Origin: a virus
Strand: one strand, 5' to 3'
DNA: 64,000 nucleotides
IMG/VR virus record: IMGVR_UViG_3300028844_004047
Coordinates: 16,350-80,349 of that record
The notes below the pieces were generated by a model, which made no database searches, was not told the origin of the DNA, and saw only the letters and a list, made by a program, of their open reading frames with translations. Below are positions 1 to 64,000 of this stretch, one piece after another (position 1 is the stretch's first letter; each line of letters begins with the position of its first letter). A program made the translations under genes and the position numbers.

Positions 1-92
1 ACATTAAAGTTTTGCTAGGTGATAAAGTGGATCTAGAAGTTAGCGTCTATGATATGAATAAAGGACGTATAACTTATAGGCATAAACAGTGA
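1..92 (+). CDS. infA: Translation initiation factor IF-1, C-terminal part (5' truncated by window)
   Basis: Frame from nt 3 reads IKVLLGDKVDLEVSVYDMNKGRITYRHKQ*, matching the IF-1 C-terminus (IRILxGDKVxVExxPYDLxKGRIxYR). Not in the ORF track. Confidence 0.88.
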   Translation, partial: IKVLLGDKVDLEVSVYDMNKGRITYRHKQ

Positions 93-133
93 GGATAATC
101 TTCACTATTCTAAAATAAAAAAAGGAGTCAAAT

Positions 134-367
134 ATGGACATACTTAATAAAATAAAAGGCTGGAGTTCAGCTCTAACAGAAGCAGGTATTAGTTTAATAT
201 CTTTAGCAGTTGTACTTGAAGTACTATTTAATGGACAGAATATTCCATTCTGGCCAAACATCAGTGTAATCGCAAATGTACAAAACATTATTGCTGGATT
301 TTCAGCACAAGGTCTTGTAGGTTTAGTAGCGATTTGGGTGTTATACCACATTTTTACAAGAAAATAA
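134..367 (+). CDS. Small two-TM membrane protein, unknown function
   Basis: AGGAG RBS upstream; two hydrophobic helices. Confidence 0.75.
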   Translation: MDILNKIKGWSSALTEAGISLISLAVVLEVLFNGQNIPFWPNISVIANVQNIIAGFSAQGLVGLVAIWVLYHIFTRK

Positions 368-406
368 TAACGTAATAATTTGGTACAAAAATAAGGAGAC
401 CAAAAC

Positions 407-568
407 ATGACAAATTGGATAAAAAGTAGAGTAAAAGAAAGAACATCGCATTCAGGAGCGGCTTTAATTGCTATTGGTGTAATTGTTCTAATTGCTGGAC
501 CTTTTGCTAAATTGGCGGCATATGCCGCAATCGGTTATGGAGCATGGCAAATCTATAAAAAAGGTTAG
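407..568 (+). CDS. Small membrane protein (53 aa)
   Basis: AAGGAG RBS; MTNWIKSRVKERTSHSGAALIAIGVIVLIAGPFAKLAAYAAIGYGAWQIYKKG; below the ORF-track cutoff. Confidence 0.75.
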   Translation: MTNWIKSRVKERTSHSGAALIAIGVIVLIAGPFAKLAAYAAIGYGAWQIYKKG

Positions 569-571
569 TGA

Positions 572-859
572 ATGCCCAAACTTACAGCCTTACATAAAGG
601 CAAGTCAATTCAAGTAGAATACACAGGCACAGACAATGTAATGATTGCCCTATACGATGATATCGATTGGGGAACTTGCGGAGGATCTTGTGCCTGTGGT
701 TCATGTATATGCACAGTACTTGAAGGAGAAGAATTTTTTAAAGACCCAAGTGAAGAAGAATTAGATATGCTTCACGCAGAAGGAAGACCTAACAGTCGTT
801 TAGGATGTCAACTAGATTTAGATAACGCACCCGATGGGAAAGTAAAAATTAGAATATGA
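572..859 (+). CDS. fdx: [2Fe-2S] ferredoxin (ISC/adrenodoxin type)
   Basis: CGGSCACGSC...EELDML...SRLGCQ cysteine pattern. Confidence 0.9.
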   Translation: MPKLTALHKGKSIQVEYTGTDNVMIALYDDIDWGTCGGSCACGSCICTVLEGEEFFKDPSEEELDMLHAEGRPNSRLGCQLDLDNAPDGKVKIRI

Positions 860-1278
860 AAGTAGAAATAAAAGACTTCAATCGAAGTCCAGATGCAGAA
901 GGCAGTTTTGATTTAAAAATAACTGACCCAAATGTTAATCAAGAAGATATTAAAAAAGAACTTCGCGAAGTACATGATCCAGAAATCAGCATAAATATAT
1001 TTGAACTAGGATTAATTTATCATTGTGATGTTGTAGAAGGTAATTGTACAACAGTTATGACACTTACAAGTCCTTTTTGTCCAGTAGCAGGCGAGATGCC
1101 AATATGGACAGAACAAGCATTGTTAAAAGTGCCTGGTATTAATAAAGTAGATGTACAAATGACATTTGAACCTACATTTAATCCATCACAAATGAGTGAA
1201 ATTGCACAGTTCACATTAAATTTAGGAGATGATAACCACGATGACGAGTATGTTACCAACTATCACAGATTCCGCTAG
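856..1278 (+). CDS. sufT: SufT/DUF59 (MIP18 family) Fe-S assembly protein
   Basis: LREVHDPEISINIFELGLIY and MTLTSPFCPVAGEMP motifs. Confidence 0.9.
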   Translation: MKVEIKDFNRSPDAEGSFDLKITDPNVNQEDIKKELREVHDPEISINIFELGLIYHCDVVEGNCTTVMTLTSPFCPVAGEMPIWTEQALLKVPGINKVDVQMTFEPTFNPSQMSEIAQFTLNLGDDNHDDEYVTNYHRFR

Positions 1279-1579
1279 AAATTACTTAATTAAAACGGCA
1301 GACAAACAAAATGCAACTAATGTATACTTTGGTGTACAAGGTGGCGGTTGTGCAGGTTTTAAATATAAATGGGATTCTATCGAAACGGATAAAATCAATC
1401 CTGAAGATGAAGTTATTAAATTAGATGAAGAAAAAAATCTAATTATTGATAAGTTTAGTTTATTCTATATTATGGGAACAACTATAGATTATAAAGAAAG
1501 TTTTGGAGGTTCCCAAATTGTAATTGAAAACCCCCAAGCAACTAGTTCTTGCGGTTGCGGAGAATCAGTAGCATTTTAA
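1229..1579 (+). CDS. iscA: A-type Fe-S carrier (IscA/SufA/ErpA, HesB family); true start may be 1241 or 1250
   Basis: GGGCAGFKY, GTTIDY, NPQATSSCGCGES motifs. Confidence 0.92.
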   Translation: MITTMTSMLPTITDSARNYLIKTADKQNATNVYFGVQGGGCAGFKYKWDSIETDKINPEDEVIKLDEEKNLIIDKFSLFYIMGTTIDYKESFGGSQIVIENPQATSSCGCGESVAF

Positions 1580-2665
1580 CTACTTTGGTGGATTAATACC
1601 TTTTGGTTCCATCGGTTCCACTGGTTCCACTTCTTGTTTTTCTTCCTTCTTACTTAAAGACTCCCAATCACCTAACTCAAACGTATGAGTTGACACTTCC
1701 CCGGATTCTACATTTTCAACCTTAACTGTGGCCATTTCTCCGTCTAACTTTGTTTTTAAGTATTCGAAGATATCACCATACTCTTTTACCTGGATCCCAT
1801 CAATTTCTAGAATGTAAGATTCGCTTGTCATTCCAGCAATATAGAGATTACTCTCAGGCGAGGCCTTTATTTTTACCCTCTTCATATCAACGTCGAAATC
1901 AACTTCGATGTTTAAAGCAGGTCTTCGTACTTTGCCGTACGAAAGTATTCTGTCGTAAACCCATCTCACATCATCTAAATGAATGCTCATTGCCCAGGCT
2001 TGTGTCTTTGCAGTCGGGTCACGAGATAGAATCATAAGTGTATTGATGCCTATTAAATCACCATGTTCATCGAACAATGGTCCGCCACTATTACCTGGCA
2101 TTATAAGTGCATCTGATTGTATTAGTCTTTGCCACGGTGAAGACACAAATCGTTTTGGATTGCTAACAATACCTTTACTAACACTCCAAATCATACCTTG
2201 CGGATGACCGATAACATAAATGTCTTCTCCAAAGTTAGGATCTTTGCCCCACTTAACAGGATTAAATTTATAATCCTTTGGTAGGTCAATTTTTATTACT
2301 GCAATGTCAGAAAGAATATCAAATCCAACAATAGTTGCATTATATTCTGTCATGGATTCGTCTTCATACATCCATACTGAAATTGTATTACCTTTTTCGA
2401 TAACGTGATAGTTAGTAATAATATGTCCTTCTTTTGACATAATAATACCTGACCCTAAACCAGAGCCCTGCTCCGGTGGAGGTACTGGAATCATGTTACC
2501 TGATGTTTCGTCTATAGTCGGTGTTACGTTTTTAATAGAAACAAAAACAGTTGACTTTAAATTGTTGTCAATATTTTTTAATCCACTAGTAGCAGTATCA
2601 GTAAAACTGAAATATGTGATTATGCTAACGCAGGCGACTAATAGGAATTGTTGAACTCGCATCAT
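1580..2665 (-). CDS. HtrA/DegP-like trypsin serine protease with PDZ-like C-terminus
   Basis: N-terminal signal/TM; GLGSGII, ITNYHV, SDIAVIK, IQSDALIMPGNSGGPL catalytic-triad motifs. Confidence 0.9.
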   Translation of the reverse strand: MMRVQQFLLVACVSIITYFSFTDTATSGLKNIDNNLKSTVFVSIKNVTPTIDETSGNMIPVPPPEQGSGLGSGIIMSKEGHIITNYHVIEKGNTISVWMYEDESMTEYNATIVGFDILSDIAVIKIDLPKDYKFNPVKWGKDPNFGEDIYVIGHPQGMIWSVSKGIVSNPKRFVSSPWQRLIQSDALIMPGNSGGPLFDEHGDLIGINTLMILSRDPTAKTQAWAMSIHLDDVRWVYDRILSYGKVRRPALNIEVDFDVDMKRVKIKASPESNLYIAGMTSESYILEIDGIQVKEYGDIFEYLKTKLDGEMATVKVENVESGEVSTHTFELGDWESLSKKEEKQEVEPVEPMEPKGINPPK

Positions 2666-8098: not shown

Positions 8099-8830
8099 AT
8101 GGCTAGTTCAATTAATACAACTAATATAGACGGTACTTTTCCAGTCGCAGGACAAGATAATAGTTCACAGGGTTTTAGAGATAACTTTACTAACCTAAAG
8201 ACAAACCTTGGATATGCTAAAACTGAGATTGAAGATTTACAAACTAAAGTAGTTTTAAAATCCGCATTAACAGGTACTTCACTTGATAATGATATGGGTG
8301 GAAACACTATCTATAACGTTGAATTAAACAGAGCAGTAACTACTAAAAACTCAATTGGTACTGTAACAGGAACTTTTACTGTTAACTATCAATCAGGTGG
8401 TTACCAAACACTTACAACTAGCGGTGCAGTAACATTAGGCTTTAGTAATTGGCCCGCAACAGGCAAATATGCTGAAGTAGACGTTATGATTAACGTTGCA
8501 GATGTTACACATACTTTAACACTACCAGCGGCTGTATCACATGGCACAGATGGTATCCAAGGATATAGCTCAAATGTTATTACTTTTAGTGCAACAGGAA
8601 ACTACTTGTTGCGTTTCTCTTCAGACGACAATGGTTCTACAATAACAGTTCAACTGTTAAGTGGACCACAGGTTGCAAAAGGTTTAGTATACAGAACAAT
8701 TAGCACAAACACAGGTCAAGCAGGTGATACTGCTGGAATGGTGGCATATGATGCCAGTTACTTGTATGTTGCTATTGCTGACTACGATGGCTCAACTGCA
8801 ATTTGGACAAGAACCGCCCTTTCTTGGTAA
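8099..8830 (+). CDS. Virion structural/tail protein
   Basis: FPVAGQDNSSQGFRDNF N-terminus; C-terminal module shared with 2991..3683; late promoter at 8050. Confidence 0.75.
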   Translation: MASSINTTNIDGTFPVAGQDNSSQGFRDNFTNLKTNLGYAKTEIEDLQTKVVLKSALTGTSLDNDMGGNTIYNVELNRAVTTKNSIGTVTGTFTVNYQSGGYQTLTTSGAVTLGFSNWPATGKYAEVDVMINVADVTHTLTLPAAVSHGTDGIQGYSSNVITFSATGNYLLRFSSDDNGSTITVQLLSGPQVAKGLVYRTISTNTGQAGDTAGMVAYDASYLYVAIADYDGSTAIWTRTALSW

Positions 8831-18476: not shown

Positions 18477-19604
18477 ATGAGTAAACACGCAGATATTGTA
18501 AATGAACAATACAACCATAAAGAGAGTAATTTTGTCTCTTTACAAACCCGTATAACAGAAGCATTTAAACTTGCACCTAAGTTTGAAGCACAACTCGAAG
18601 CAGTTGTAGAAGAATTCAAAAGACGTAACAAAGATAACTGGTCATCATACAGTGACATGGAATTAGTACAAGCAATTCCTGTAGATTTTAGTAAAATACT
18701 AATCGACTCAACAATGCAACGTCCTGTTAATATGCGTCATGTATTAAAAATCCTAAACTATTTTAGTCAAACTATGGTTATGCCTATACAAGTATATAAA
18801 GAAGGTGACAATTATATTGCTTGGGACGGACAACATACTAGTATTGCACTTTATCTTATACTTACAAAAGTATTTGGTGAACGTCAAGTAGGTACAATGA
18901 TTCCTGTTAACATTTATCCAGTTAAGCAAAAATTAGAAATTCGTAGAAACTTTATTCTACTTAATGGTGATGCTAAAGAGAAACTAGATTTTATCGATAC
19001 ATATCGTCAAATGGTTTATGGTGCTATTATTGATAACAGTGATGATCCTATTTGGCAAGACACTGCTAAAATTAATGACTATTTAAAAGAAGCAGGTCTA
19101 TTTGCTACACACGAAAAGTTTGGTGATGATAGAGAGTCTGGTGCATTTACATTGTTGGCTGATACTATTATGACAAAGAAGTTAGAAAAACGTAAAGACG
19201 TTGATGTAACTCGTATGTTTGCAAAGTATTGGGTTTATATTAATGATGAACGTCCTGTACAAGCAAAAGAAGCCAGAATGCTTTATGAATACTTTGATGC
19301 TTGTTTTAAAGATAATGTAAAAGTAGATGACAAATACTTGTTAGACTTTGCATTATTCTGTAAAGAATACTTTGAAGCAAATTGGTCTGAAACAGGATCG
19401 TTTTGGAGTAAAGTAAAACTATCTTATGAAACTTGGTATAAAAAGGCTAACCCAGAAGAATTTGAAGAAAATGGTTTAAAAGGTTTTACTACAGAACCAC
19501 GTTTTGGTGTTCCGTTTTTGATTGCACAACTTAAAAAAAGTACTAAACTTAAAACACCTAAGTACAAACACTTGTATGCAGTTGATGGAAAGGATCTTTG
19601 GTAA
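18477..19604 (+). CDS. ParB/Srx-like (DGQHR/DUF262-related) domain protein
   Basis: ILIDSTMQRP...PIQVY...YIAWDGQHT motif; own promoter TTGACA 18394/TATTAT 18416. Confidence 0.7.
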   Translation: MSKHADIVNEQYNHKESNFVSLQTRITEAFKLAPKFEAQLEAVVEEFKRRNKDNWSSYSDMELVQAIPVDFSKILIDSTMQRPVNMRHVLKILNYFSQTMVMPIQVYKEGDNYIAWDGQHTSIALYLILTKVFGERQVGTMIPVNIYPVKQKLEIRRNFILLNGDAKEKLDFIDTYRQMVYGAIIDNSDDPIWQDTAKINDYLKEAGLFATHEKFGDDRESGAFTLLADTIMTKKLEKRKDVDVTRMFAKYWVYINDERPVQAKEARMLYEYFDACFKDNVKVDDKYLLDFALFCKEYFEANWSETGSFWSKVKLSYETWYKKANPEEFEENGLKGFTTEPRFGVPFLIAQLKKSTKLKTPKYKHLYAVDGKDLW

Positions 19605-20065
19605 TGATTCGTAATCCAGATAAAGATAAGTTTAAAAGTTCGGCAGTATTAACAGAACAACAACTTAAAGCAACCACTTGTATGTTACAAGATTGTGATA
19701 ACAAGTTAAGTATGTATGAAGGTCCTGGTAGTCAAGTACTATGTAGACAACACCAACTTGAGTGTGTTGAATATGGTGGAATGGGAAAACCAGAAAGACC
19801 ACATACATTTTATCGTAACTGGATATGTGATAGTTGTAGTTACGATCCACGTGAAGATGAACTAAGATTTGGTCACGTTGAAAATGAATATGATAAGATT
19901 CGTGCAATGCGAGGAGTGATGCACGGTGATCATATACACTTAAAGTCTAAGGGCGGAACTGATACTAAAGATAATATTAGTACTTTATGTGTATTGTGTC
20001 ATATGGCAAAAACTTATACTCAAAAGGACTATTTGGGTAAAAAGCAGGATAATATGGTAGTTTAA
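19598..20065 (+). CDS. HNH endonuclease with Zn fingers
   Basis: CDSC...GDHIHLKSKGGTDTKDNISTLCVLCHMAKT; start overlaps the upstream stop. Confidence 0.85.
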   Translation: MVMIRNPDKDKFKSSAVLTEQQLKATTCMLQDCDNKLSMYEGPGSQVLCRQHQLECVEYGGMGKPERPHTFYRNWICDSCSYDPREDELRFGHVENEYDKIRAMRGVMHGDHIHLKSKGGTDTKDNISTLCVLCHMAKTYTQKDYLGKKQDNMVV

Positions 20066-29226: not shown

Positions 29227-30033
29227 ATGAGCGACTATTATAACATACTTGGAGTAGACAAAAGTGCCAATGCTGACCAATTAAAGGCGGCATATAAAAA
29301 AGCGAGTATGAAGCATCACCCTGATAGAGGTGGTAGTGAAGACGAATTCAAAAAGATCAACGAAGCATACACAACTCTAAAAGATCCACAAAAAAGACAA
29401 CAGTACGACAACCCAAACCAATTTCAATTTAATACATCTGGGTTTAGTTTTAATAACGAAGATATACCTGATAATGTAGCAGACCTTTTTGCAAGTATGT
29501 TTGGTAGACCAGGAGGTATGCATAAACCTAGAACAAGGGGATCCGATATACGTTTACAAATGCCAATGACACTAGAAGAAATTGCTAGTGGTATAAACAA
29601 AACAATTAGTGTTAACATAGCAGGCAAGGATGAAGTATTAAATATTACTATACCAATGGGTATGCAAAATGGACAACAAGTTAGATACAAAGGAAAAGGT
29701 AATCCTGGTCCTGTTGAAAGAGGAGATTTATATATTGTTGTAAAGCAATTACCTCACAAAGTATTTGAACGTAATAATAACGACATTTATAGTATGCAAG
29801 AAATAAGTGTATGGCAAGCAATGATTGGAGCAGAATATTCGCTAGAAACAGTGAATAATAAAAAGATCAAATATAAGGTAAATCCGGGCAGTCAGCCAGA
29901 AACCCGCATAAAACTAGCCAATCAAGGTATTAATGGCGGACATCACTATGTTATTCTTCATGTTTTGGTGCCAAAAGACTTGACAGAATCGCAAAAACAA
30001 GTTATATTAAGTATTATGAATGGTAAAATATGA
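29227..30033 (+). CDS. dnaJ: DnaJ/CbpA-type co-chaperone
   Basis: DYYNILGV...KHHPDRGG...EAYTTLKDPQKR J-domain plus C-terminal domain; no Zn finger. Confidence 0.92.
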   Translation: MSDYYNILGVDKSANADQLKAAYKKASMKHHPDRGGSEDEFKKINEAYTTLKDPQKRQQYDNPNQFQFNTSGFSFNNEDIPDNVADLFASMFGRPGGMHKPRTRGSDIRLQMPMTLEEIASGINKTISVNIAGKDEVLNITIPMGMQNGQQVRYKGKGNPGPVERGDLYIVVKQLPHKVFERNNNDIYSMQEISVWQAMIGAEYSLETVNNKKIKYKVNPGSQPETRIKLANQGINGGHHYVILHVLVPKDLTESQKQVILSIMNGKI

Positions 30034-30503
30034 AACTAACAGATAACATATTAAACATTATTACACAACCTGTGGTATTTGATACTATGGAAGATAAAAT
30101 AGAGAACGAACGTCTATCTGTAATTATGTTTGGATTCATGCGAGAATCAAATGGTATTGGTTTAGCGGCAAATCAAGTAGGAATAGATACTAGTTTATTT
30201 GTTACATTTACTGAAGGCAAGTATACTGCATTTTTTAATCCAGTATTAATAGAATGGAGTGATAGATTAGTTAAGTTTGATGAAGGGTGTTTAAGTTTCG
30301 AAGGCGAAAGTCTTATTGTAGAAAGACCTGAATGGATTAAACTTGAATGGCAAGATCACAAAGGAAACAAAAGTAAAAAAATATTACATGGAATTAGTGC
30401 TAGAGTATGTTTACACGAATACGACCACTTAAAAGGCATTACATTTCATCAACGAATTAATAACACTAATATAACGGAAGATTTATTATATGTTAAGACC
30501 TAA
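30030..30503 (+). CDS. def: Peptide deformylase
   Basis: GIGLAANQVG, EGCLS, HEYDHLKG motifs. Confidence 0.95.
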   Translation: MKLTDNILNIITQPVVFDTMEDKIENERLSVIMFGFMRESNGIGLAANQVGIDTSLFVTFTEGKYTAFFNPVLIEWSDRLVKFDEGCLSFEGESLIVERPEWIKLEWQDHKGNKSKKILHGISARVCLHEYDHLKGITFHQRINNTNITEDLLYVKT

Positions 30504-32826
30504 TCCAGAAATAGAATTAATTGTAGAAAAGGCTAGTGAGTTTGCCGCCAAATACGGACACAGTTATGTTACTGTTGAACATTTATCACTTGCATTAATT
30601 AACTACAAAAACTTTAGAATTATGCTTGAAGAGTTTGGTGCTGACTTTGACGGACTTAATGATTCATTTGTTAAGTATCTTACTGACAACCAATTTGGTA
30701 AAAAAGCAAAACAAGGCGAAGAAGTTAGACTTCTTAGAACACACGCATTAGAAAGAGTTTTTAATAGAGCATATACTCAAGTACTATTTGGTGGTAGAGA
30801 ACATATGCAAACTATAGATATCTTTTTAAGCATCTATGCAGAAGAAAAAGGCTATTCAATTTACTTGTTTAAAAAGTTTGGTGTTAATAAAAAAGATTTA
30901 GTAGAATTCTTTAACGAAACATATGTACATGATAATCCATACAGTGGAGAACTAGGCAGAGAAGACGCTGAACGTACACTAACAGAGTATTGTACAGATT
31001 TAAACAAACTAGCAGAAAAAGGTGAAGTTGATCCTGTAATAGGTAGACAACATGAAATTGATGAACTATGTCAGATACTAGGTAAAAGAAACAAAAGTAA
31101 TGTATTACTAGTTGGTGATCCTGGTGTTGGTAAAACTGCTATTGCGGAAGGACTAGCAGGTAAAATTGTTGCTGGCGAAGTTCCACAATATTTAAAAGAA
31201 GCAACAATTTATAGTTTAGATATTGGTGGTCTAGTTGCTGGTTCTAAATATAGAGGCGAGTTCGAAGAAAAAATTAAAGATGTATTTGAAAGTTTACAAG
31301 CAAAGCCTGGTAGCATTGTGTTTATTGATGAAGCACATACAATGAGAGGTGCAGGTGCTACAAGTGGTAGTGGTCCTGATTTTGCACAAATGGTTAAGCC
31401 TTATATTACTAGAGGACTAAGAGTTATTGCAAGTACAACTTGGGAAGAATACAACACAAGTTTTGAAAAAGATAGAGCATTGATGAGAAGGTTTTATAGA
31501 CTTACTATTGATGAGCCAACTCCAGCAGTTGCAAAAGATATTTTAGTTGGACTTAAAAAATATTTTGAAGAATACCATACTGCTAAAATTACAAAAAATG
31601 CCATCGAATCGGCAGTTGATTTAAGTGTAAGATATCAAACAGACAAGAGATTGCCTGATAAAGCAATTGACTTAATTGATAGTGCTTGTGCTAAACAAAG
31701 ACTATTAAACAGAAGTAATTTTACAATTAACAAGCCAAACATACTAGAAGAATTAAGTAAAGCAGTTAAGATTCCTGTTGATCAATTAGGTAGTGCTAGT
31801 AGTGGTGTTAAAGTAGAAGAGAATTTAGAAACAATTGAAGGTAAAATTAAAACAGGATTGTATGGACAAGACAAAGCAGTTGATACAATTATGGATAGAG
31901 TTACAGTAACAAGAGCAGGACTTAAATCACATAGTAAACCTGTTGGAAGTTATTTGCTAGTAGGACCTACAGGTACTGGTAAAACAGAACTTGCTAAACT
32001 ATTAAGCGAAAACTTACATATGAAACTTCTACGTTTTGATATGGGAGAGTATCAAGAGAAACACACAGTTGCAAGACTGATTGGTGCACCTCCAGGATAT
32101 GTAGGATACGAAGATGGTAACTTGGGTGGAGGTTTACTTGTAAGTCAAGTAGAGAAAGATCCTAATGCCATTATATTGTTTGACGAGATTGAAAAAGCAC
32201 ACCCAGATGTAACAAACGTATTGTTAAGTTTAATGGACGAAGGATTTGTTACAAGTACAAATGGTAAAAAAGCAGATGCTAGAAACTGTATTGTATTAAT
32301 GACAAGTAACTTAGGTGCAAAAGAATCTGAGAAAAGAGGCATTGGGTTTGGTGCTAGTGAAGAAAATGCAGAAGCAAGTACTGAAGAAGTTAAAAAGTTT
32401 TTTGCTCCTGAATTTAGAAACAGATTAGATGGTACTATTAAGTTTAATAAACTTGATAAGAGTATTATGCGTAAAATTGTTATTAAGTTTATTGATGAAA
32501 TAAATGAACTAATGATTGAAAAAGGTTTACATATTACTATTAGCGAAAGTGCAGTAGAAGAACTTGCTAAAAAAGGATACGAACCTAGTATGGGTGCAAG
32601 ACCTTTAAAACGTGTAATTGAAAATGAAATTAAGATACCATTGTCTAAGTCTATTATTAGAGACAAGCCAATTGCAGGAACTAATATTATATTAAAATAC
32701 GAAGATGATAAGTTTACTTTTGAATACAAACCAGAAGAAGTTATTGTCGACAAGTTAGCACATAATCCTGGTGTTGACGAAGATGGCTTAATAGTTTTAG
32801 ACCAATTCAAACCAAAAGTACAATAG
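30490..32826 (+). CDS. clpA: ClpA-type AAA+ unfoldase
   Basis: Clp N-domain, two Walker sets ([14 protein letters not shown]; [17 protein letters not shown]), [13 protein letters not shown] ClpP-docking loop, no ClpB middle domain. Confidence 0.92.
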
Positions 32827-38094: not shown

Positions 38095-38396
38095 TGAGAG
38101 CATCTGAATTTATCAGTGAAGACCTAAGAGCATGGTTCGGCAAAGGCAAGAAGGGCGGAGCCGGAGGTGGTGGTTGGGATCGCTATAATACTAAAGGCGA
38201 ACGTATTGGTAAATGCGGAGATAGAAGCAAAGGTGAAGGCAAACCTAAATGCTTGTCTAAATCACGTGCGGCTAGTTTAAGAGCCAAGGGCGGTAAAAAA
38301 GCAATCGCGGCGGCTGTTAATAAAAAACGCAGAGATGATCCAAAAAAGAATCGCAAAGGCAAAGCGAAAAACGTTTCTAATAAAGTTAAAAAATAG
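38094..38396 (+). CDS. Small basic protein (EDLRAWF..GW..CG..KPKC type)
   Basis: TAATG coupling; very Lys/Arg-rich. Confidence 0.75.
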   Translation: MRASEFISEDLRAWFGKGKKGGAGGGGWDRYNTKGERIGKCGDRSKGEGKPKCLSKSRAASLRAKGGKKAIAAAVNKKRRDDPKKNRKGKAKNVSNKVKK

Positions 38397-45845: not shown

Positions 45846-46910
45846 ATGAGAGCAAGACAGTTTTTAAAAGAATATACAGATTTAAGTACTGCTAAAGCAG
45901 AAATACTTAAAAGTATCAATGCCATTGACCCGGACACAAAAGATGAAGATGCCCGTGCAAAAGCAGAAAAAGTATTAGATAAGATTTACACTGTTCTTAA
46001 TAAAAACTCAGTGCTAGACAGATTCACATCAGTACTACCATCCATACTTAAAGATGAATACAACGATACGCAGATAATGAAAATTGCCGGTGAAATTGCG
46101 AAGGCGCCATTATCCTATGCTGAAAAAATGAAGTTCACAGAAAATCTAGCAAGTAATAAAGTAATCAATGCCAAAGTATTAGTAACACCAGGTACATATA
46201 CTATTGATAAATTATGTTATGATAGTTCACTTAACAAAGAAGTATTTTTACATTTAAGAAGTTACGGTGTTGGACAACAAATGAAAGGTCCAATGGAACA
46301 CGCATTGGCAATTTTAAGTTCAGGTATTAGTATTAAAGGTAAAGGTGATGTTACAGTAGGTACTACTCCTGTAGAAGTTAAAGCGGCAATTGGTGAGAAA
46401 AAAGGTTCAGGCGGTGGACGTTTTGGTGAAGCCGGTGAAGTTCCAGGTAGAGAGGCTATGATTGCCATCATACAATCATACGAATGGTTAGCAGGTCCTG
46501 TTAATGAATACCTAGAAGGACAAGCAAGTCTAAACGTTGAGAATTTTACAAAAATTGTTAATGCCACAGGTGCAGAACCGAGTGAACGTAAAAAACTTGG
46601 TGATGAGATATTTGGCAAAATCTTCCCAGGCAAGTCAGGACAAATTGTTTCAGTATTCCAAAATAAAAACGCAGACCCCAATGAAGTTAGAAAAGCATAT
46701 ATCAAAGCAAACTTTGATTGGTACAAAGATTCAGACATGGGCGGTGCTTGGCAAGTACTAGTAGGAATTAGTATGGCAGATAACTCCGTGGGAGTTATGA
46801 AGGATTCTAGCGATTTCGATAAAGTTGCTACTGCTAAAAAGAACCCAGCAATCATTACCACTGGTAAACCAATGGAAATGTTATTCCAATTTAATCCAAA
46901 ATTATCATAA
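45846..46910 (+). CDS. Late protein with putative PD-(D/E)XK nuclease-like domain
   Basis: KGPMEHALAILS...KGDVTVGTTPVEVKA...GGR; late promoter 45816. Confidence 0.55.
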   Translation: MRARQFLKEYTDLSTAKAEILKSINAIDPDTKDEDARAKAEKVLDKIYTVLNKNSVLDRFTSVLPSILKDEYNDTQIMKIAGEIAKAPLSYAEKMKFTENLASNKVINAKVLVTPGTYTIDKLCYDSSLNKEVFLHLRSYGVGQQMKGPMEHALAILSSGISIKGKGDVTVGTTPVEVKAAIGEKKGSGGGRFGEAGEVPGREAMIAIIQSYEWLAGPVNEYLEGQASLNVENFTKIVNATGAEPSERKKLGDEIFGKIFPGKSGQIVSVFQNKNADPNEVRKAYIKANFDWYKDSDMGGAWQVLVGISMADNSVGVMKDSSDFDKVATAKKNPAIITTGKPMEMLFQFNPKLS

Positions 46911-52062: not shown

Positions 52063-53529
52063 ATGAAGACTGACTTAACTAAAGAACAGAATGACTATGC
52101 AGTCTTTTTGCCGGCATTAAGTACATTCTATGCACTATTTGTAGGTAGGCAACGTAGGCACGAATATATTGATTATAATCGTGTTCCTAGTTTCTTGCAA
52201 CATGGCGTAGAAAGTATTAACTGGTTGGCACCGGAAGGTATATGGAAATATAAATGGAGTCTACACTCGGCGGGTCATGCCAGTTTAGATTTACAAAAGG
52301 ATATGTATCGTGAAGATATGTATCGTGTTCGTGATAAAAACACTAGTTGGTTACTAGGGGACTCAGGTGGTTTCCAAATTGGTAAAGGTAAGTGGGAAGG
52401 CGACTGGCGTAAAGACAGTGGTTGTCCACAAGCACAGAAAAAACGAGACGGTGTTTTAAAATGGATGGACAAGTTCATGGACTACGGAATGATTTTAGAT
52501 ATTCCGGCTTGGGTAAGTCGTTCCCCAGAAGGTGCGGCGGCAAGTAAGATTAGTTCATATCAAGAAGCAGTAGAAGGCACACAACAAAATAACGAATATT
52601 TCATTAAAAACAGAAACGGTAATTGTAAGTTCTTAAATGTATTACAAGGTGAGAACTTCCAACAAGCCGATGACTGGTATAATCAAATGAAACATTTCAG
52701 TGATCCTAAATTATATCCAGATGCACACTTTAATGGTTGGGCAATGGGTGGTCAAAATATGTGTGACTTACACCTAGCACTAAAACGTGTAGTAGAACTT
52801 CGCTTTGATGGTTTACTTGAGAAAGGCAAACAAGATGTTATGCACTTCTTAGGTACAAGTAAACTTGAATGGGCATTGGTACTAACGGCTATACAACGTG
52901 GTATTAGAAAAAATCATAATGAGAATTTTACTGTAACTTTTGATTGTGCAAGTCCTTTCTTATGTACTGCTAATGGTCAGATTTATACTGGACATAGAAC
53001 TGTACAAGATGAAAAGTGGAGTTACTTGATGTCTAGTGCACCAGATGATAAAGCATATAGTACTGATACAAGACCTTATGATGATTTAGCAACAGATTTC
53101 TTTACTAAACAAGGAATGAATTGGATGCCTACTCCTATTACAAAAGGACTAAAAGTAAATGACGTTTGTATTTACAGTCCAACAGATGTTAATAGAATGG
53201 GTGTGTCTACTAAAACTAGTTGGGATAGTTTTGCATATGCACTTATGATGAATCATAATGTTTATACACATATTAATAGTGTACAAGAAGCAAATAGACA
53301 ATATGACTCAGGCAATTATCCTAATATGCTTATTAATGATACATTTGATAAACAAGAAGTTAAAGATGTTATTGCTAGAGTATTTGAAATTGATAATAAA
53401 GATCAAGCATTAGCATTAATTGACGAGCATACAAAATTATGGATGAAAGTAGTTGGTACACGTGGAGCAGTTGGTAAAAAAACTATTAACAGTTCTGCAC
53501 AATTTAACAATTTATTCAGTGAGAATTAA
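52063..53529 (+). CDS. TGT-fold base-exchange enzyme (DpdA/queuine tRNA-ribosyltransferase-like)
   Basis: GDSGGFQIG, MILDIP, NVLQG, GWAMGG, MHFLGTS, TFDCASP, HN: the ordered TGT catalytic motifs; no CxCxxC Zn site seen. Confidence 0.85.
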   Translation: MKTDLTKEQNDYAVFLPALSTFYALFVGRQRRHEYIDYNRVPSFLQHGVESINWLAPEGIWKYKWSLHSAGHASLDLQKDMYREDMYRVRDKNTSWLLGDSGGFQIGKGKWEGDWRKDSGCPQAQKKRDGVLKWMDKFMDYGMILDIPAWVSRSPEGAAASKISSYQEAVEGTQQNNEYFIKNRNGNCKFLNVLQGENFQQADDWYNQMKHFSDPKLYPDAHFNGWAMGGQNMCDLHLALKRVVELRFDGLLEKGKQDVMHFLGTSKLEWALVLTAIQRGIRKNHNENFTVTFDCASPFLCTANGQIYTGHRTVQDEKWSYLMSSAPDDKAYSTDTRPYDDLATDFFTKQGMNWMPTPITKGLKVNDVCIYSPTDVNRMGVSTKTSWDSFAYALMMNHNVYTHINSVQEANRQYDSGNYPNMLINDTFDKQEVKDVIARVFEIDNKDQALALIDEHTKLWMKVVGTRGAVGKKTINSSAQFNNLFSEN

Positions 53530-54405
53530 ATGAGAAGTCTTGTAGTAGGAATGGGTATTGGTCAACTTTACAAAAAGGTACTTACAGAAATGGGTATTGA
53601 AGTTGTAACAGTTGATCCTAAGAGACCAGCACACTATAAAACTATTCATGAAGTTCCAATTGATATGTATGATACTATACATATCTGTACACCAAATGAA
53701 ACCCACGAAGACATAGCAAGGTTCCTTGCTCCGTGGTGTCATTTGCTTTTTATAGAAAAGCCTGGACTTGCTACTTCCAAAGCATGGGCAGATTTGCATT
53801 ACGACTTTCCAGAGTGTAGAATATCTATGGTTAAAAATAATCAATATAGACACAACATCGATGAACTTACTAACATGGCAAGAACAAGCAGAAATGTAGA
53901 TATCAATTGGTGTAACAAAAACAGAGTACCTAACCCAGGCACATGGTTCACAACTAAAGAATTAGCATACGGTGGTGTAAGTAGAGATCTACTTCCTCAT
54001 TTGTTAAGTTTGTATCAAGTGTTCAATTCCGATTACGACGAAACACCTCCATCAGATAAGATAGCAAAGACTAATTGGAAATTAAAAGAACTACTTGATA
54101 CAGACTACGGCACAGTTGATCCTAATGGAATGTATGATGTTGACGACGAAGCAGGTATGACATACAAAGCAAAGTTTTGTAATTACAACCTACTCGCTAA
54201 TTGGAAAACAGATTTATATGATGATGTTGGTTTAAACTTTGAGATATTAGGTAACGTAGAACGTGTAGAGTTAGGCTTATGTCCTGAAGATGCTTATAAA
54301 AGAATGATTGACACAGGGCTGAAAAACCTGCATAATGATACATATTGGGAAGATCAATTTAAAAAAGATATGTGGATACACGAACAAATGGAAGAACTAT
54401 GTTAG
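53530..54405 (+). CDS. Gfo/Idh/MocA-family NAD(P) oxidoreductase
   Basis: VVGMGIG, ICTPNETH, FIEKPG, GGVSRDLLPH. Confidence 0.85.
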   Translation: MRSLVVGMGIGQLYKKVLTEMGIEVVTVDPKRPAHYKTIHEVPIDMYDTIHICTPNETHEDIARFLAPWCHLLFIEKPGLATSKAWADLHYDFPECRISMVKNNQYRHNIDELTNMARTSRNVDINWCNKNRVPNPGTWFTTKELAYGGVSRDLLPHLLSLYQVFNSDYDETPPSDKIAKTNWKLKELLDTDYGTVDPNGMYDVDDEAGMTYKAKFCNYNLLANWKTDLYDDVGLNFEILGNVERVELGLCPEDAYKRMIDTGLKNLHNDTYWEDQFKKDMWIHEQMEELC

Positions 54406-55379
54406 TAAAACTATTACAAACAACAGGCAATGGAAAATTCGAAGAGATAGAATGGGAAAAGCCTAATATAGGTTTTGAAGAAATTGAAGTTAAGGCTTTG
54501 ATGACAGGCGTTTGTCGTAGTGATATTGATATGATGAATGGCAACTTTGGTCCATTACCTTTGCATATGCAAGGACATGAAGGACTAGGACAAGTTACAA
54601 AGATTGGTAAAGGTATTACTGATATTAAAGTTGGCGACTTTGTTGCAACAAGAGGTGAACCTGCATATGCAGATTATTACAACTGTAGGAAAGATGAATA
54701 TGTACAAGTACCTGACGCTGATCCTAAATACATTATAGAACCTGTGGCTTGTGGTGTTAACATTGTTACAAGTAATATGGAGAAATTAAATTGGAGTAGT
54801 AGCATTGCAAAAATCCAAGGTAAAAGACAACGTATATTAATTATTGGCAGTGGGTTTTTAGCAACAGTAGTATACACAAAATTAAAATTAATGCGTTTAG
54901 CAGATGATGTAGATGTATTAGGTTCGCACAATAGAAAGTTTTGGGAAGATAGACTTATAGATAAACCACGTGGACAATATGATATTGTAATCGATTTAAA
55001 AGATGATAGCACACTTGTATTTGATGGTGATATTATTAACGAAAATGCTTTGGTTATTTTGGCGGCAGAGAAAAAAGGAATTACTACAACCTTTGGAAAC
55101 TTATTATGGAAAAATGCAAGTATGCAATTTCCTAGTCCTAGAAACCCAAACTTCCATAGTGCTATGTTAGATGCAGTTTCAATGATAAACACAGGAACAT
55201 TAAACATAGATAACTTTTGGACAAAAGGTTACAGTAGAGATACTGAATGGCAACAAGCATTTGAAGATGGCAACAATAGACCTGAAGGATATAGCAGAGG
55301 GTATATTGTTTGGGAAAAGCATATGTTTAAAATATATGAAGATAAACGTGCAAAGAAAATTATAGAGGGATCTGCATGA
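54399..55379 (+). CDS. Zn-dependent medium-chain (sugar/alcohol) dehydrogenase (track start 54372)
   Basis: GVCRSD, GHEGLGQV..IG....IKVGD.V, IEPVAC, IIGSGFL. Confidence 0.88.
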   Translation: MLVKLLQTTGNGKFEEIEWEKPNIGFEEIEVKALMTGVCRSDIDMMNGNFGPLPLHMQGHEGLGQVTKIGKGITDIKVGDFVATRGEPAYADYYNCRKDEYVQVPDADPKYIIEPVACGVNIVTSNMEKLNWSSSIAKIQGKRQRILIIGSGFLATVVYTKLKLMRLADDVDVLGSHNRKFWEDRLIDKPRGQYDIVIDLKDDSTLVFDGDIINENALVILAAEKKGITTTFGNLLWKNASMQFPSPRNPNFHSAMLDAVSMINTGTLNIDNFWTKGYSRDTEWQQAFEDGNNRPEGYSRGYIVWEKHMFKIYEDKRAKKIIEGSA

Positions 55380-57365: not shown

Positions 57366-58460
57366 ATGAAAACAATATACATAGTAGACTTGGAGCCTGT
57401 CGAAACAAGATATACGGCTCAATGGAAAAAACACTTACCTGAACAAATGTCTAGGTACTTAGGTACTGAAGAATATAATGTAAAAGTTATTAGTGGCGGA
57501 GATGTTCCACAAACTACTACTCCAGGTGCATTTTTAAACTTTGCTGGTACAAACAGTTACAAGAGTCAACAAATGTTAGAGATTGCTAATCTTGTAGCAA
57601 GTGGTGAAGTTAAAGATGGTGATTACTTTCTATATACAGATGCATGGAATCCTACTGTTATACAATTAAAGTATATGGCAGAACTATTAAACATCAATAT
57701 TAAGATTGGTGGTATGTGGCACGCCGGTAGTTATGATCCAGCAGATTTCTTAGGTAGAATCATTGGTGCTAAACCTTGGGTACGTTATGCAGAAGCAAGT
57801 ATGTTCGAATGTTATGATCATAATTACTTTGCTACACGTTTCCATGTAGATTTATTTGCACAAAGTTTCTTAAATGATACAAAAGATATTGATCAAAATT
57901 TAGAATCAGGTAAGATGCATATTGTAGGTTGGCCCATGGAGTATCTTAAAGATACATTGAAGCCATTCGAAGGTGCAAAGAAAGAAAACATTATATTGTT
58001 TCCGCATAGAGTAGCACCTGAGAAGAACCCAGAGATCTTTGCTAAATTAAAAGAACTGTTACCAGACTATGAGTTTATTGTATGTCAAGACAAGCAGTTA
58101 AGCAAAGACGAATACCATGAACTACTAGGTAAAGCAAAGATTGTGTTTAGTGCTAACTTGCAAGAAACATTAGGTATCAGTGCTTACGAAGGTTGTTTGG
58201 TAGATACATTACCATTAGTACCTAATAGATTAAGTTACTTTGAAATGTATCCAGATGAATTTAAATATGCAAGTGCTTTAACAGTAACACTAAAAGGATT
58301 TGAAAAGAGTCCTACAGAGGTAGTAGACAAAGTTAAAGATATGGTTGACAACTATGACAAGTATGTTGATACTAACAATATGCTAAAAGATAGATTAAAA
58401 GATTTCTTTGATGGTACAAAACTATACGAAACTATTAAGGAAAGCGTCGATGGAGTTTAA
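57366..58460 (+). CDS. Glycosyltransferase (GT-B, GT4-like)
   Basis: WHAGSYD, FPHRVAPEKNP, SANLQETLGISAYEG (ExxxxxxxE), PNRLSY.E. Confidence 0.85.
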   Translation: MKTIYIVDLEPVETRYTAQWKKHLPEQMSRYLGTEEYNVKVISGGDVPQTTTPGAFLNFAGTNSYKSQQMLEIANLVASGEVKDGDYFLYTDAWNPTVIQLKYMAELLNINIKIGGMWHAGSYDPADFLGRIIGAKPWVRYAEASMFECYDHNYFATRFHVDLFAQSFLNDTKDIDQNLESGKMHIVGWPMEYLKDTLKPFEGAKKENIILFPHRVAPEKNPEIFAKLKELLPDYEFIVCQDKQLSKDEYHELLGKAKIVFSANLQETLGISAYEGCLVDTLPLVPNRLSYFEMYPDEFKYASALTVTLKGFEKSPTEVVDKVKDMVDNYDKYVDTNNMLKDRLKDFFDGTKLYETIKESVDGV

Positions 58461-59075: not shown

Positions 59076-59762
59076 ATGAGTATAAGTGAAGAAATTAAAA
59101 ATCGTATCCAGGCTGATGGCTCTCGCTATTGGGCTGGAGACAATATTAGCAAGTATTTAGAAGAAGGTGATAAGCAAAAACTTATCGATGAACTTACACC
59201 TAAGTTTGAAGCAGTGCTAGACAGTTTGGTAATTGATAGAAACAATGATCCAAATAGTATGGACACTGGCAAACGTCTTGCTAAAATGTACATCAATGAA
59301 CTAATGGCAGGGCGTTACGAAGAAATGCCTAATGCAACTGCATTTCCCAATCATATTGAAAATGGTTATAAAGGTATGCTGGTAGTACGAAGTGAACTTA
59401 AAAGTGTTTGTTCGCATCATCACCAACCAGTAAGTGGAGTGGCATATATTGGAATCATTGCGGCAGAACATTTAATTGGTTTGTCTAAGTATACTAGGAT
59501 TGCACAATGGTGTGCAAGACGTGGTACATTACAAGAAGAACTTAATAATGTTATTGCTGATGAGATTCAAAAAGCAACTGGTAGTCCTAATGTAGGTGTA
59601 TACATTCAAGCAACACATGGTTGTTGTGAGAATAGAGGAATTATGGCACATAGTTCTTTAACACAGACAACTGTATTACGTGGTGCTTTTAATGAAGACA
59701 TGGGCACTAAAAAAGAGTTTATGGATAATATTAAACTACAACAGGAATTCGCTCCTAGATAG
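59076..59762 (+). CDS. folE: GTP cyclohydrolase I
   Basis: DTGKRLAKMY, SVCSHHHQP, IGLSKYTR, RRGTLQE, ATHGCCENRG. Confidence 0.95.
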   Translation: MSISEEIKNRIQADGSRYWAGDNISKYLEEGDKQKLIDELTPKFEAVLDSLVIDRNNDPNSMDTGKRLAKMYINELMAGRYEEMPNATAFPNHIENGYKGMLVVRSELKSVCSHHHQPVSGVAYIGIIAAEHLIGLSKYTRIAQWCARRGTLQEELNNVIADEIQKATGSPNVGVYIQATHGCCENRGIMAHSSLTQTTVLRGAFNEDMGTKKEFMDNIKLQQEFAPR

Positions 59763-61418: not shown

Positions 61419-62027
61419 ATGTTTAATTTTAAGAACGTAGATAAAACTATGCTTATGAAACTTGTAGCACTGCACGTTATTGTGATTACAGTATCAAATG
61501 CATTAGTGGCAATACCAGTAGAAATATTTGGTGTTAAATTAACCTGGGCGGCATTTACTTTCCCATTAGTTGTTATTGCAACAGACTTAACAGTTAGATT
61601 GTTAGGTAAAGAGATTGCAAGGTCAACTATCGCGGCGGCATATCCATTAGCAATTATTGGATCTATCGCAGTTGTATTGGCAGAAGGTGCACCTGGATCA
61701 GTTGCATTAAGAATTGGTTTTGCAAGTGCTACAGCATATGCAATTGGTACAATGCTTGACGTTTATGTATTCCAATACATTAGAGAAGCATTTAAAAACA
61801 ATTGGTGGTTAGCACCAGCAGTATCAACTGTTGCGGCAAACATTATTGATACTTACACATTCTTTGCAGTTGCGTTTAATAACAGTGCTGATGAATATAT
61901 GGCGGCAAACTGGATTGAAATTGCAGGTTCTCAAACTGTACTTAAAATCGCAGTAGGTTTGTTAGTATTCTTACCAGCATATGGTATTTTACTAAACCAA
62001 CTACAAAAGAAGTACAAGTTAAAATAA
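61419..62027 (+). CDS. yhhQ: Queuosine-precursor (preQ0/preQ1) transporter, YhhQ/QPTR family
   Basis: SNALV..P, TWAAFTFP....TDLTVR.LG...AR, RIGFASATAY, LDVYVF, WWLAP..ST...N.IDT..FF..AF, FLPAYG; GGAGG RBS. Confidence 0.92.
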   Translation: MFNFKNVDKTMLMKLVALHVIVITVSNALVAIPVEIFGVKLTWAAFTFPLVVIATDLTVRLLGKEIARSTIAAAYPLAIIGSIAVVLAEGAPGSVALRIGFASATAYAIGTMLDVYVFQYIREAFKNNWWLAPAVSTVAANIIDTYTFFAVAFNNSADEYMAANWIEIAGSQTVLKIAVGLLVFLPAYGILLNQLQKKYKLK

Positions 62028-62083: not shown

Positions 62084-62150
62084 ATGGGCCTAGGTTGACA
62101 ATATGAATAATTCCTGTATAATATAACATTAGAACAACATAAAGGAACAT

Positions 62151-62378: not shown

Positions 62379-62393
62379 TAAAAAAAGATTAAA

Positions 62394-62485
62394 GACCCTT
62401 GATTTATAAGGGTTTTTTTATGGGTAAAGTGGTTGACAGATTGACAAAAGGTGCTATTATAATAGTATAAGTTAAACAAAAGGAG
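62394..62485 (+). promoter_or_regulatory. Stem-loop plus early promoter cassette
   Basis: ACCCTT-GATTTAT-AAGGGT-TTTTTT hairpin, then GGTTGACA-16nt-TATTAT-AATAGTATAAGTTAAACAAAAGGAG. Confidence 0.7.
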
Positions 62486-62689
62486 ATGTATAAAACAATG
62501 AAAATAGCAATACAAACAGTAGCAGTATTTTTAATCTTTATGGGCCTAATGGCTATTGCAGGATCAGGTGGTGATTGTGATGGTAAATGTGGTGCTGGTA
62601 ATACTATTAGTGAAATGCTTATGATTATGTTTATTGGTATTTCAATGATGAGTACAGGTGGTTTTATTTTAATCAAAGGAGACAAATAA
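62486..62689 (+). CDS. Small two-TM early protein
   Basis: AIAGSGGDCDGKC between two TM helices. Confidence 0.65.
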   Translation: MYKTMKIAIQTVAVFLIFMGLMAIAGSGGDCDGKCGAGNTISEMLMIMFIGISMMSTGGFILIKGDK

Positions 62690-62690
62690 T

Positions 62691-62948
62691 ATGAACGTTC
62701 AAATGAAAAAAGACATCATGGGTATGTCATTAGCAGAACTTAATGCTTTAACAAATTTCGTTAATGAAGTTAAGGTTATTAATGCAAAATCAACACTGGA
62801 AGTTGGTATGAAAGTTAACATTGTACAAAAGACTAAGAAGACTCCAGGTACTATTACAAAAGTTAATCAAAAGAAATGTTTGGTTAAAATTGATGGTGCT
62901 ATTGGTACAATTTACACAGTTCCAATGCAAATGTTAGAGGCGGCTTAA
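62691..62948 (+). CDS. Small early protein, SH3/KOW-like
   Basis: LEVGMKV...GTITKVNQKKCLVK...YTVPMQML. Confidence 0.7.
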   Translation: MNVQMKKDIMGMSLAELNALTNFVNEVKVINAKSTLEVGMKVNIVQKTKKTPGTITKVNQKKCLVKIDGAIGTIYTVPMQMLEAA

Positions 62949-63118
62949 TGAAGAAAACATTTAAATGTACAGTGTGTAGTACCAAGTTTACACACAATAA
63001 GTCAGAAACACTAGTTGGTAAACTAGGTATTATTCCTGTAAACCTTTGCAAGAAGCATTTCAAGGCAGTCATGAAGCACGACGAACTATTGCTAAATGAC
63101 CACAGGAAGATGGCGTAA
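62948..63118 (+). CDS. Small Zn-ribbon-like protein (56 aa)
   Basis: FKCTVC...LCKKH; TAATG coupling at both ends. Confidence 0.6.
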   Translation: MKKTFKCTVCSTKFTHNKSETLVGKLGIIPVNLCKKHFKAVMKHDELLLNDHRKMA

Positions 63119-63327
63119 TGCAGGATGTAACTAAAGCCACAATGGAAGATTTAAGGGGAGAGTTAAACGACCTTAAATTAGGCTTAGGTGGAATTGGCAC
63201 AAAAGATATAATGTATATGCATGATATTGAAGATGAGATCGACTGGAGAATTGAGAACGGTTATGCTGATCTTACTCCAGAAGAGATTGAAGAAGAATTA
63301 GCAGAGAAGGAAGAAGTAAATGCTTAA
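63118..63327 (+). CDS. Small acidic protein
   Basis: TAATG coupling. Confidence 0.6.
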   Translation: MQDVTKATMEDLRGELNDLKLGLGGIGTKDIMYMHDIEDEIDWRIENGYADLTPEEIEEELAEKEEVNA

Positions 63328-63414
63328 CCAAGTTGTTTCATTCTTTTGGAAGGTTGTGTTTACAACATTCATCGTTTGGTTTATATTTTTTATGATTGGT
63401 TTAGGAGTAAGTTA

Positions 63415-64000
63415 ATGAATAAAAAGACAGCAGTTTTAGGAATGGTTAGTATGTTGGCTCTTACCGCTTGTGGCGGTGGAGGCGGAGGCGGGCCTGTGAA
63501 AATTACAACTCCAGTTCCAACTCCAGAACATCTTGGTACTATTGATTTTGGTTCATTAGCATCAAATAACGGAATACTTGCTAAAATCGTTAACGTTTCT
63601 AAAGATGGTGTAGCAAATGCTCAGGAAGTTGTTGGTATTTTTGAAGAAATTAATCAATTAGAAAAAGAAGTAGATACTACAGATTTTCATAAATTCCAAG
63701 TTACTATCGACGAAAGAACAATGACTTTAGATAAAGCATGGAATATGATACTAGGCTATAAAAAAGTTTATTACGATGGTAAAGAAGATTTTTGGCAAGG
63801 TATTGTAGAATCTAAAACTTTTGACGATGAAAAATCTAACTATATAGATTTAAAAGCCTTTGCACAAAATAATGATAAGATAGATTTTGAGAAAGTTGGT
63901 AACGGTGAAAAGTCAATCGATGATGTTAAAAAAGATATTGTTCCGATTGTAGAAGAACCAATTGTAGAAGAACCTGTTGAGGAAGAACCAATAGTTGAAG
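63415..64000 (+). CDS. Lipoprotein, 3' truncated by window
   Basis: AGGAG RBS; MNKKTAVLGMVSMLALTAC-GGGGGGG lipobox plus Gly linker; open to the window end with VEEP repeats. Confidence 0.75.
   Translation, partial: MNKKTAVLGMVSMLALTACGGGGGGGPVKITTPVPTPEHLGTIDFGSLASNNGILAKIVNVSKDGVANAQEVVGIFEEINQLEKEVDTTDFHKFQVTIDERTMTLDKAWNMILGYKKVYYDGKEDFWQGIVESKTFDDEKSNYIDLKAFAQNNDKIDFEKVGNGEKSIDDVKKDIVPIVEEPIVEEPVEEEPIVE

Follow-up and report, generated by a model that had tools for sequence, protein, structure and literature searches.

Absence of GCWGC and flank-dependent loss of short palindromes in an uncultured marine giant phage with a TGT-like gene module

The stretch of DNA analysed here, referred to as the window, comprises 64,000 bp (bases 16350–80349) of the virus contig IMGVR_UViG_3300028844_004047 (G000; 80,349 bp, GC 34%, CheckV completeness 22%) and belongs to an uncultured marine giant phage that is abundant in seawater. 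Exact counting found neither GCAGC nor GCTGC (GCWGC) in the window, which agrees with an earlier sequence-only reading of the same DNA. This word is one of at least seven found to be purged, the others being AGCT, RCATGY, GCGC, CGCG, GGCC and TACGTA, with GATC more weakly affected; the sequence-only reading had described the GCWGC purge correctly but missed at least six further purges, most of them dependent on the flanking bases. The pattern as a whole is probably explained by nucleases of the host population that drive the purges, with a context-limited modification of G shielding some sites and with GCWGC, which has no such relief, being fully purged.

Absence of GCWGC and recoding of alanine pairs

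Within the window GCAG was counted 281 times, GCTG 88 times and GCSGC 81 times, with both GCAGC and GCTGC at 0; dinucleotide shuffles of the window give an expectation of about 50 GCWGC matches, both strands counted. For the whole contig a codon-shuffle null was used, in which the synonymous codons of 137 crudely called open reading frames (ORFs; 92% coding) were shuffled within genes or from a global pool (300 shuffles). GCWGC was again at 0, against 62.5 ± 4.1 for the within-gene shuffles and 68.5 ± 4.2 for the global pool, the lowest of the 300 shuffles containing 50 copies. Codon-preserving controls had been proposed as a check in the sequence-only reading, and their expectation of 62–68 copies in G000 with none observed upholds it. 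GCWGC was the most depleted of all 5-mers. It was missing from both strands and from all three coding frames able to spell it; with protein sequence and codon usage preserved in the null, the depletion persists irrespective of reading frame and strand.

The same absence was found in a relative from IMG/VR, G001 (306,714 bp, 87% complete), which is colinear with G000 at 76–94% protein identity and contains no GCWGC against 302 copies expected from codon-preserving shuffles. Seven loci from separate assemblies (L001–L007) were also at 0. Furthermore, runs containing at least half of the words sampled from a 4.9-kb stretch of the window were found in approximately nine marine or seawater studies, the possible source study being left out, and the habitat signal from the read runs was marine only. 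The zero counts in G001 and L001–L007, together with these independent studies, make an assembly artefact unlikely. With regard to cultured phages, the DNA polymerase gene polB of G000 shows 42–49% identity to its counterparts in Phosso, Atu_ph07 and Vibrio 2.275.O, all giant phages, and a megablast search with 12 kb of this DNA against cultured phages gave no match.

GCWGC is the specificity of TseI and ApeKI, and BbvI reads GCAGC. The purged word is exactly the common double-stranded target of these enzymes, with GCSGC being spared. Indeed, GCSGC was over-represented in G000 (86 copies against 24–34 expected, an excess of 2.5–3.6 times), in line with the earlier claim that the avoided word is GCWGC and not GCNGC. 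The products expected from deamination, GTAGC and GCTAC, showed no compensating rise and stood at 0.8–0.9 of expectation. GCSGC, which differs by a central transversion, took the place of the lost sites (2.5–3.1 times expectation) where C-to-T products did not, indicating selection on the DNA rather than decay by deamination.

This replacement is visible in the alanine codons. GCA (888) and GCT (354) make up 82% of alanine codons overall, GCC (166) and GCG (104) being the minority, but none of the 76 first codons of Ala-Ala pairs was GCA or GCT (GCG 54, GCC 22). Alanine pairs are thus confined to GCS-GCN, as had been stated from inspection, and the examples cited at that time near 512, 38306, 52534, 56213 and 61633 read as described. 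At 512..529 (+ strand) recoded pairs are spelled GCG-GCA and GCC-GCA, and at 38307..38314 (+ strand) an Ala-Ala-Ala stretch begins GCG-GCG-GC, with like cases near the last three of those positions.

Flank-dependent loss of other palindromes

When six-letter IUPAC patterns were scanned without bias in G000, HAGCTD, at 0 copies against 130 expected, ranked above even GCWGC. Also at 0 in this contig were RCATGY (37 expected), HGCGCD (20 expected) and TACGTA (14–16 expected), so that the double-stranded word GCAGC/GCTGC, HAGCTD, RCATGY, HGCGCD and TACGTA are all absent across the window (1..64000). Twenty-five copies of AGCT survive in G000, and every one of them has a G just before or a C just after it (binomial P = 9e-15). 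Seventeen of these lie in the window, one at 8567..8570 and the others at 169, 14261, 15180, 15953, 16559, 16924, 17093, 17347, 17665, 23102, 28921, 33880, 37790, 40481, 44958 and 56646.

In G001, depleted words were ranked using a ratio filter, as a Poisson-ranked motif scan was swamped by mild A/T-tract effects. HAGCTD was absent (546 expected) with 123 AGCT survivors, all of the GAGCT type, and the 61 GCGC survivors were all of the GGCGC type. RCATGY was found once against 167 expected, with the remaining CATG sites at expectation, and TACGTA was absent against 81 expected. A broader avoidance of YACGTA was considered and rejected: CACGTA was at 0 of 13 expected in G000 but had 18 copies in G001, and only TACGTA is therefore a purge common to both records. 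On the + strand of G000 the reverse complement TACGTG had four copies (16 in G001), and the lack of CACGTA there could represent a recent purge of the lineage or chance.

The flank dependence was found to follow one rule. Six four-letter palindromes (AGCT, GCGC, CGCG, CATG, GGCC and GATC) were depleted only where no 5'-GR-3' step straddles the edge of the site. Sites were classed as having 0, 1 or 2 such steps on either strand, a boundary step arising when G immediately precedes a site whose first base is a purine or when a purine immediately follows one whose last base is G. The ratios of observed to expected copies (O/E) in G001 at 0, 1 and 2 boundary steps were 0.00, 0.55 and 1.77 for AGCT, 0.00, 0.49 and 0.95 for GCGC, 0.00, 0.23 and 1.20 for CGCG, 0.01, 1.07 and 0.58 for CATG, and 0.55, 1.25 and 1.03 for GATC; GGCC gave 0.16 and 1.18 at 0 and 1 steps, sites with two steps being too few. 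Binomial P values for this edge rule in G001 ranged from 5e-7 to 6e-71, and G000 showed the same picture. No such trend was present in the six palindromes ACGT, GTAC, CCGG, CTAG, AATT and ATAT, which are not purged. The surviving contexts are of the types GAGCT, GGCGC, GGGCC, GGATC, CATGR and YCGCGR. GCATGY, in which G precedes a site starting with C, showed no relief (1 copy against 60 expected in G001), and as this word is purged despite its flanking G, it is the purine after that G that matters. A requirement of GGC for CATG survival, the context described for phage CAjan, was rejected, with RCATGG being at expectation overall (O/E 1.06–1.10).

A number of weaker depletions were also recorded. 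YCATGR reached only 0.58–0.73 of expectation in G000 and G001 despite its two edge GR steps. GGATG/CATCC stood at 0.45–0.57 in both records, and further words depleted in G001 were TGGCCA (9 of 51 expected), the ACGCG-containing six-letter words ACGCGA (0 of 26) and ACGCGT (0 of 12.5), GCTAGC (0 of 19) and CATCCC (7 of 49). AATT was mildly low whatever the flank (0.76–0.83) in G000, G001 and two more distant relatives, G002 and G004, and stood at 0.95 in the cultured Pseudomonas jumbo phage PA5oct.

To place these purges among relatives, 50 loci sharing a neighbourhood of polB, a gene for a protein resembling tRNA-guanine transglycosylase (TGT), a glycosyltransferase-like gene and folE were compared, and G002, G004 and PA5oct were shuffled in the same way as G000 and G001. 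The nearest group of relatives purges all of the words listed. Relatives at 62% identity, including G004, purge GCWGC (0 against 66 expected in G004), with G004 also purging GCGC (0 of 23 expected in the edge class without a boundary step, then 10 of 22). In L035 and L038 AGCT alone is purged and its survivors show no G-flank preference, in L041 all CATG is purged, in L021 only RCATGY is purged, and in L008 and L009 none of these words is. L129 and L130 have no HAGCTD and 7–10 AGCT survivors. G002, whose TGT-like protein has 73% identity, shows no purge of GCWGC, AGCT or CATG, but its CGCG sites follow the edge classes at 0 of 28, 3 of 63 and 18 of 35 expected for 0, 1 and 2 steps, with GGCC at 0.35 versus 0.84. 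The rule is therefore seen in three lineages with different purged words, all of which carry the module of TGT fold, glycosyltransferase and FolE; the edge rule belongs to the phage family and the purged words do not. PA5oct, given the same treatment, was essentially free of purges and its flank effects were faint, which indicates that the method does not itself create the pattern.

A quantified edge rule of this kind, applying to GR and not only to GG/CC and recurring on different words in three lineages, is new, as is the finding that it goes together with a single conserved TGT-fold module that has a cultured stand-in with reported GA/GG modification. A search of the literature collection used here found no paper tying site avoidance to deazaguanine context.

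The TGT-like gene module

Directly after polB and a 243-amino acid (aa) ORF, which the sequence-only reading had taken for a clamp, lies a gene (52063..53529, + strand) for a 488-aa protein of the TGT superfamily, resembling DpdA and considered a candidate DNA guanine-exchange enzyme. Its AlphaFold2 model (mean predicted local distance difference test score, pLDDT, 88.8) is predicted to have the (beta/alpha)8-barrel fold of TGT, as the top 50 Foldseek hits in the PDB were all to the Zymomonas mobilis enzyme (probability 1.00, E ~1e-7, template modelling (TM) score 0.36–0.55). The motifs DSGGFQ and FDCASPF are invariant in a 26-member alignment and may correspond to D102 and D280 of Z. mobilis TGT. 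At the sequence level, the protein had no Pfam (PF01702 included), NCBIfam or PHROG match at E up to 1, and no PDB match was obtained by sequence or alignment profile. More than 7,700 homologues were found, some of them from Tara ocean sources, and the only cultured carriers were PA5oct-like phages, Phosso and Vibrio 2.275.O (13 phage records).

The genes of interest that follow are all on the + strand. A weak Gfo/Idh/MocA-like oxidoreductase (53530–54405; GFO_IDH_MocA below cut-off) is followed by a Zn alcohol-dehydrogenase-like protein (54372–55379; ADH_N, E = 3e-11); homologues of these two stand side by side in PA5oct and are present only in some lineages. A glycosyltransferase-like protein is encoded at 57366..58460 (weak Glycos_transf_1, E = 2.5e-4, below cut-off), and its gene accompanies the TGT-like gene in almost all related loci with a downstream flank long enough to include it. 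Within 10 kb of the TGT-like gene there are also a gene for GTP cyclohydrolase I, FolE (59076..59762; PF01227, E = 2.4e-38; phrog_2197), which carries out the first step towards preQ0, and one for a YhhQ-type transporter of the queuosine precursors preQ0/preQ1 (61419..62027; NF008406, E = 5e-57; TIGR00697, E = 2e-32; PF02592). In G001 there are, in addition, a QueC-like gene, QueD and numerous radical-SAM genes. The deazaguanine modification suggested by the sequence-only reading is consistent with this gene content, that is, a protein of predicted TGT fold together with FolE and a preQ0/preQ1 transporter. No match to the methyltransferase families PF00145, PF01555 and PF02086 (C5, N4/N6 and Dam-type) was found in G000 or G001.

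The gene order polB, 243-aa ORF, TGT-like gene, o55376, o56174, glycosyltransferase-like gene, (HIT) and folE is kept across 50 marine contigs (L001–L050) down to 50% identity, where the flank reaches. In G001, twelve ORFs with a radical-SAM domain (337–506 aa; L052–L067, see L069–L076) were noted, mostly at the contig ends (~1.6–17.4 kb and 291–304 kb), and the one at 107 kb near the QueC-like gene is a possible QueE.

PA5oct (genus Wroclawvirus) has a TGT-like protein with 34% identity and the same order of polB, small ORF, TGT-like gene and glycosyltransferase-like gene, the last of these directly adjoining the TGT-like gene and having 44% identity. It encodes FolE, and QueE-like and PTPS-like genes have been described in it (PMC12191111). 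Its DNA resists EcoRI, BmrI, XbaI and BsaI, which was interpreted in the same study as a modification of G in GA and/or GG (PMC12191111). It differs from G000 and G001 in its near lack of purges, containing 524 HAGCTD sites and 158 AGCT sites flanked by G. In its genome (MK797984.1; L079–L093) the ApaLI site GTGCAC occurs twice against ~23 expected and GGCC is at about half of expectation; given this scarcity, the published resistance to ApaLI may reflect missing sites and not a modified base.

Possible origin of the purges

From the counts, the edge rule and the gene content we infer that the phage repeatedly meets a sequence-specific DNA-cutting enzyme targeting GCWGC, so that selection removes the sites, mostly by synonymous recoding in which Ala-Ala is written as GCS-GCN. 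Most likely the cutter would belong to a restriction system of the TseI/ApeKI or BbvI type in the marine host population; avoidance does not distinguish these two types, since a single double-stranded site reads GCAGC on one strand and GCTGC on the other. GCWGC would then be one layer in a stack of purges which differ between related phages as host nucleases differ between host lineages; purged sets that are nested or mosaic among contigs with the same core genes are what would be expected if the restriction repertoires of the hosts vary. It is further suggested that the module of TGT-like protein, glycosyltransferase-like protein and FolE exchanges G at 5'-GR-3' steps for a 7-deazaguanine derivative that may be bulky; sites with a GR step at their edge would thereby be shielded and survive, and sites lacking one would be purged. 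Since neither G of GCWGC precedes a purine, and a G next to the site brings no relief, deletion would be the only escape, which could account for the absolute purge. The sequence-only reading had proposed either a host nuclease that the modification does not block or avoidance of a nuclease of the phage itself. The former fits, since no G of GCWGC lies in a purine-followed and apparently shielded context. The phage thus seems to modify what it can and to delete what it cannot.

A more specific version is offered tentatively, at rather less than even confidence. The pattern of surviving sites may be a readout, from sequence alone, of the 5'-GR-3' target context of DNA guanine transglycosylases that form a new marine clade of very high abundance, with a product that is probably a sugar-bearing 7-deazaguanine able to shield even from a base pair outside the site, and words such as GCWGC that never contain or abut a GR step would have to be deleted.

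Several points weigh against this explanation by host nucleases and shielding. The edge rule fails for GCWGC itself, with GGCWGC at 0 against 34 expected and GCWGCC at 0 against 48 in G001. The internal GR steps of GATC and GGCC do not prevent depletion and the step just outside does, which needs enzyme-specific assumptions. A GR step is a pyrimidine-C step on the opposite strand, and the statistics cannot tell which base bears the shield. The one-sided ratios near 0.5 could in part reflect sites lying one mutation from a lethal one. The TGT assignment draws on a predicted fold with TM 0.36–0.55 and two short motifs, with no Pfam, NCBIfam or PDB sequence match, and the modification itself is deduced from sequence. 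PA5oct, being free of purges, is unable to confirm the edge rule and serves as a negative control only.

The self-avoidance proposed in the sequence-only reading would have the phage carry one or more unguarded site-specific nucleases, used for example in the destruction of host DNA, from which its own genome is safe through absent or shielded targets. Two candidates had been named. The first (18477..20065, + strand) consists of a 375-aa protein of no known family and an overlapping HNH endonuclease (19598–20065, + strand; PF01844, E = 1.6e-7), and the second (45846..46910, + strand) is a 354-aa protein with a PD-(D/E)XK-like E...GD...EVK motif. In the latter, E151, D168, E177 and K179 are invariant across the family (alignment A2), the model has a pLDDT of 89, and HinP1I, HhaI and MspI appear as weak structural leads (Z 2.7–3.3; feature score 0.80); Foldseek with the model returned nothing at E ≤ 0.001 and a wide structural search only hits with Z below 4. 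That none of the three methyltransferase families was matched in G000 or G001 also fits an unguarded nuclease. However, G002 encodes both the 375-aa protein and the HNH endonuclease and G003 the 375-aa protein, and in neither record are GCWGC, AGCT or CATG avoided. Homologues of the 354-aa protein (47–60% identity) lie in many phage contigs where GCWGC, AGCT, CATG and GCGC are present at normal counts. The presence of both candidates in relatives with normal word counts leaves self-avoidance of these genes unsupported. In addition, the Bsp6I and HinP1I families (PF09504 and PF11463), the only two restriction-enzyme families searched, gave no credible match in G000 (22% complete) or G001, and several nucleases would be required to account for seven or more unrelated words. 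This alternative is considered quite unlikely.

It is also conceivable that hosts drive the purges and that the shield is something other than 7-deazaguanine, such as a C mark at pyrimidine-C steps, with the TGT module serving another purpose. This would agree with the symmetry of the edge rule between strands and with the failure of GR steps inside GATC and GGCC to protect. It is nevertheless regarded as unlikely, given the absence from G000 and G001 of matches to C5 or N4/N6 methyltransferase families, the presence of the TGT/glycosyltransferase/FolE module in every lineage showing the rule, and the inclusion in the rule of GA steps (GAGCT, CATGA) and not only GG/CC; PA5oct, with the same module, also has a reported modified G in GA/GG (PMC12191111). 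Still less probable is that there is no shield at all and that the host enzymes disfavour G-preceded or C-followed sites or have longer recognition sequences. The same edge rule would then be needed independently for enzymes acting on AGCT, GCGC, GGCC, GATC and CGCG in three lineages with different purged sets, and the purge of AGCT in L035 and L038 leaves survivors without the G-flank preference. RCATGY (NspI) and GCWGC (TseI/ApeKI) are known specificities that need no modification to be explained, but no enzyme is known to read HAGCTD, HGCGCD or HGGCCD. Finally, a cause without nuclease selection, namely decay by methyl-C deamination or an effect of codon pairs or translation, is largely refuted and has very little credibility left: codon choice is visibly affected, but GCWGC is at zero in three frames, the depletion stands against shuffles that keep protein and codon usage for each gene, the replacement is GCSGC rather than C-to-T products, and close relatives with the same genes have no purge.

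Avoidance of restriction sites by phages has long been known, and avoidance of short palindromes in virulent double-stranded DNA phages was reportedly established in classical work by Sharp, Karlin and Rocha and surveyed by Rusinov et al. in 2018. The purges described here resemble this classical avoidance in being strong, independent of frame, achieved by synonymous recoding, lineage-specific and directed at several words at once; they differ from it in being absolute over 300 kb and in the dependence of six of the words on a neighbouring base. A single marine Chloroflexi genome bin with GCWGC methylation is described in PMC8919816; this is no more than a lead and connects no such enzyme or methyltransferase with the host of this phage.

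Phage DpdA enzymes are context-specific, acting at GA and GGC in CAjan and at GA only in phage iggy, and some restriction enzymes still cut sites containing the modified G (PMC7544227; PMC10484667). The system proposed here shares with these a TGT-superfamily enzyme beside genes of the preQ0 pathway, an overlapping context of G followed by A or G, and a protection from restriction that would be partial and enzyme-dependent. Unlike them, it involves a far-diverged clade of 488-aa proteins lacking a Pfam TGT match and coupled to glycosyltransferase-like and dehydrogenase-like genes; its context is deduced from the survival of sites, and protection seemingly comes from a G outside the recognition site.

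If this reading is true, word counts from metagenomes would by themselves reveal a DNA modification, its sequence context and the restriction specificities of the hosts, without culture or chemistry. The family, which has thousands of homologues, is abundant in seawater; a cultured stand-in for the prediction exists in PA5oct. As a practical warning, purged words shape codon usage, the frequencies of amino acid pairs and assays of resistance to a given enzyme in such phages.

Elsewhere in the window, the region 29227–32826 was found to encode a DnaJ (29227–30033) and a full-length two-ring ATPase of the ClpA/ClpB type (30490–32826). ClpA-like homologues are also present in PA5oct-like and other giant phages.

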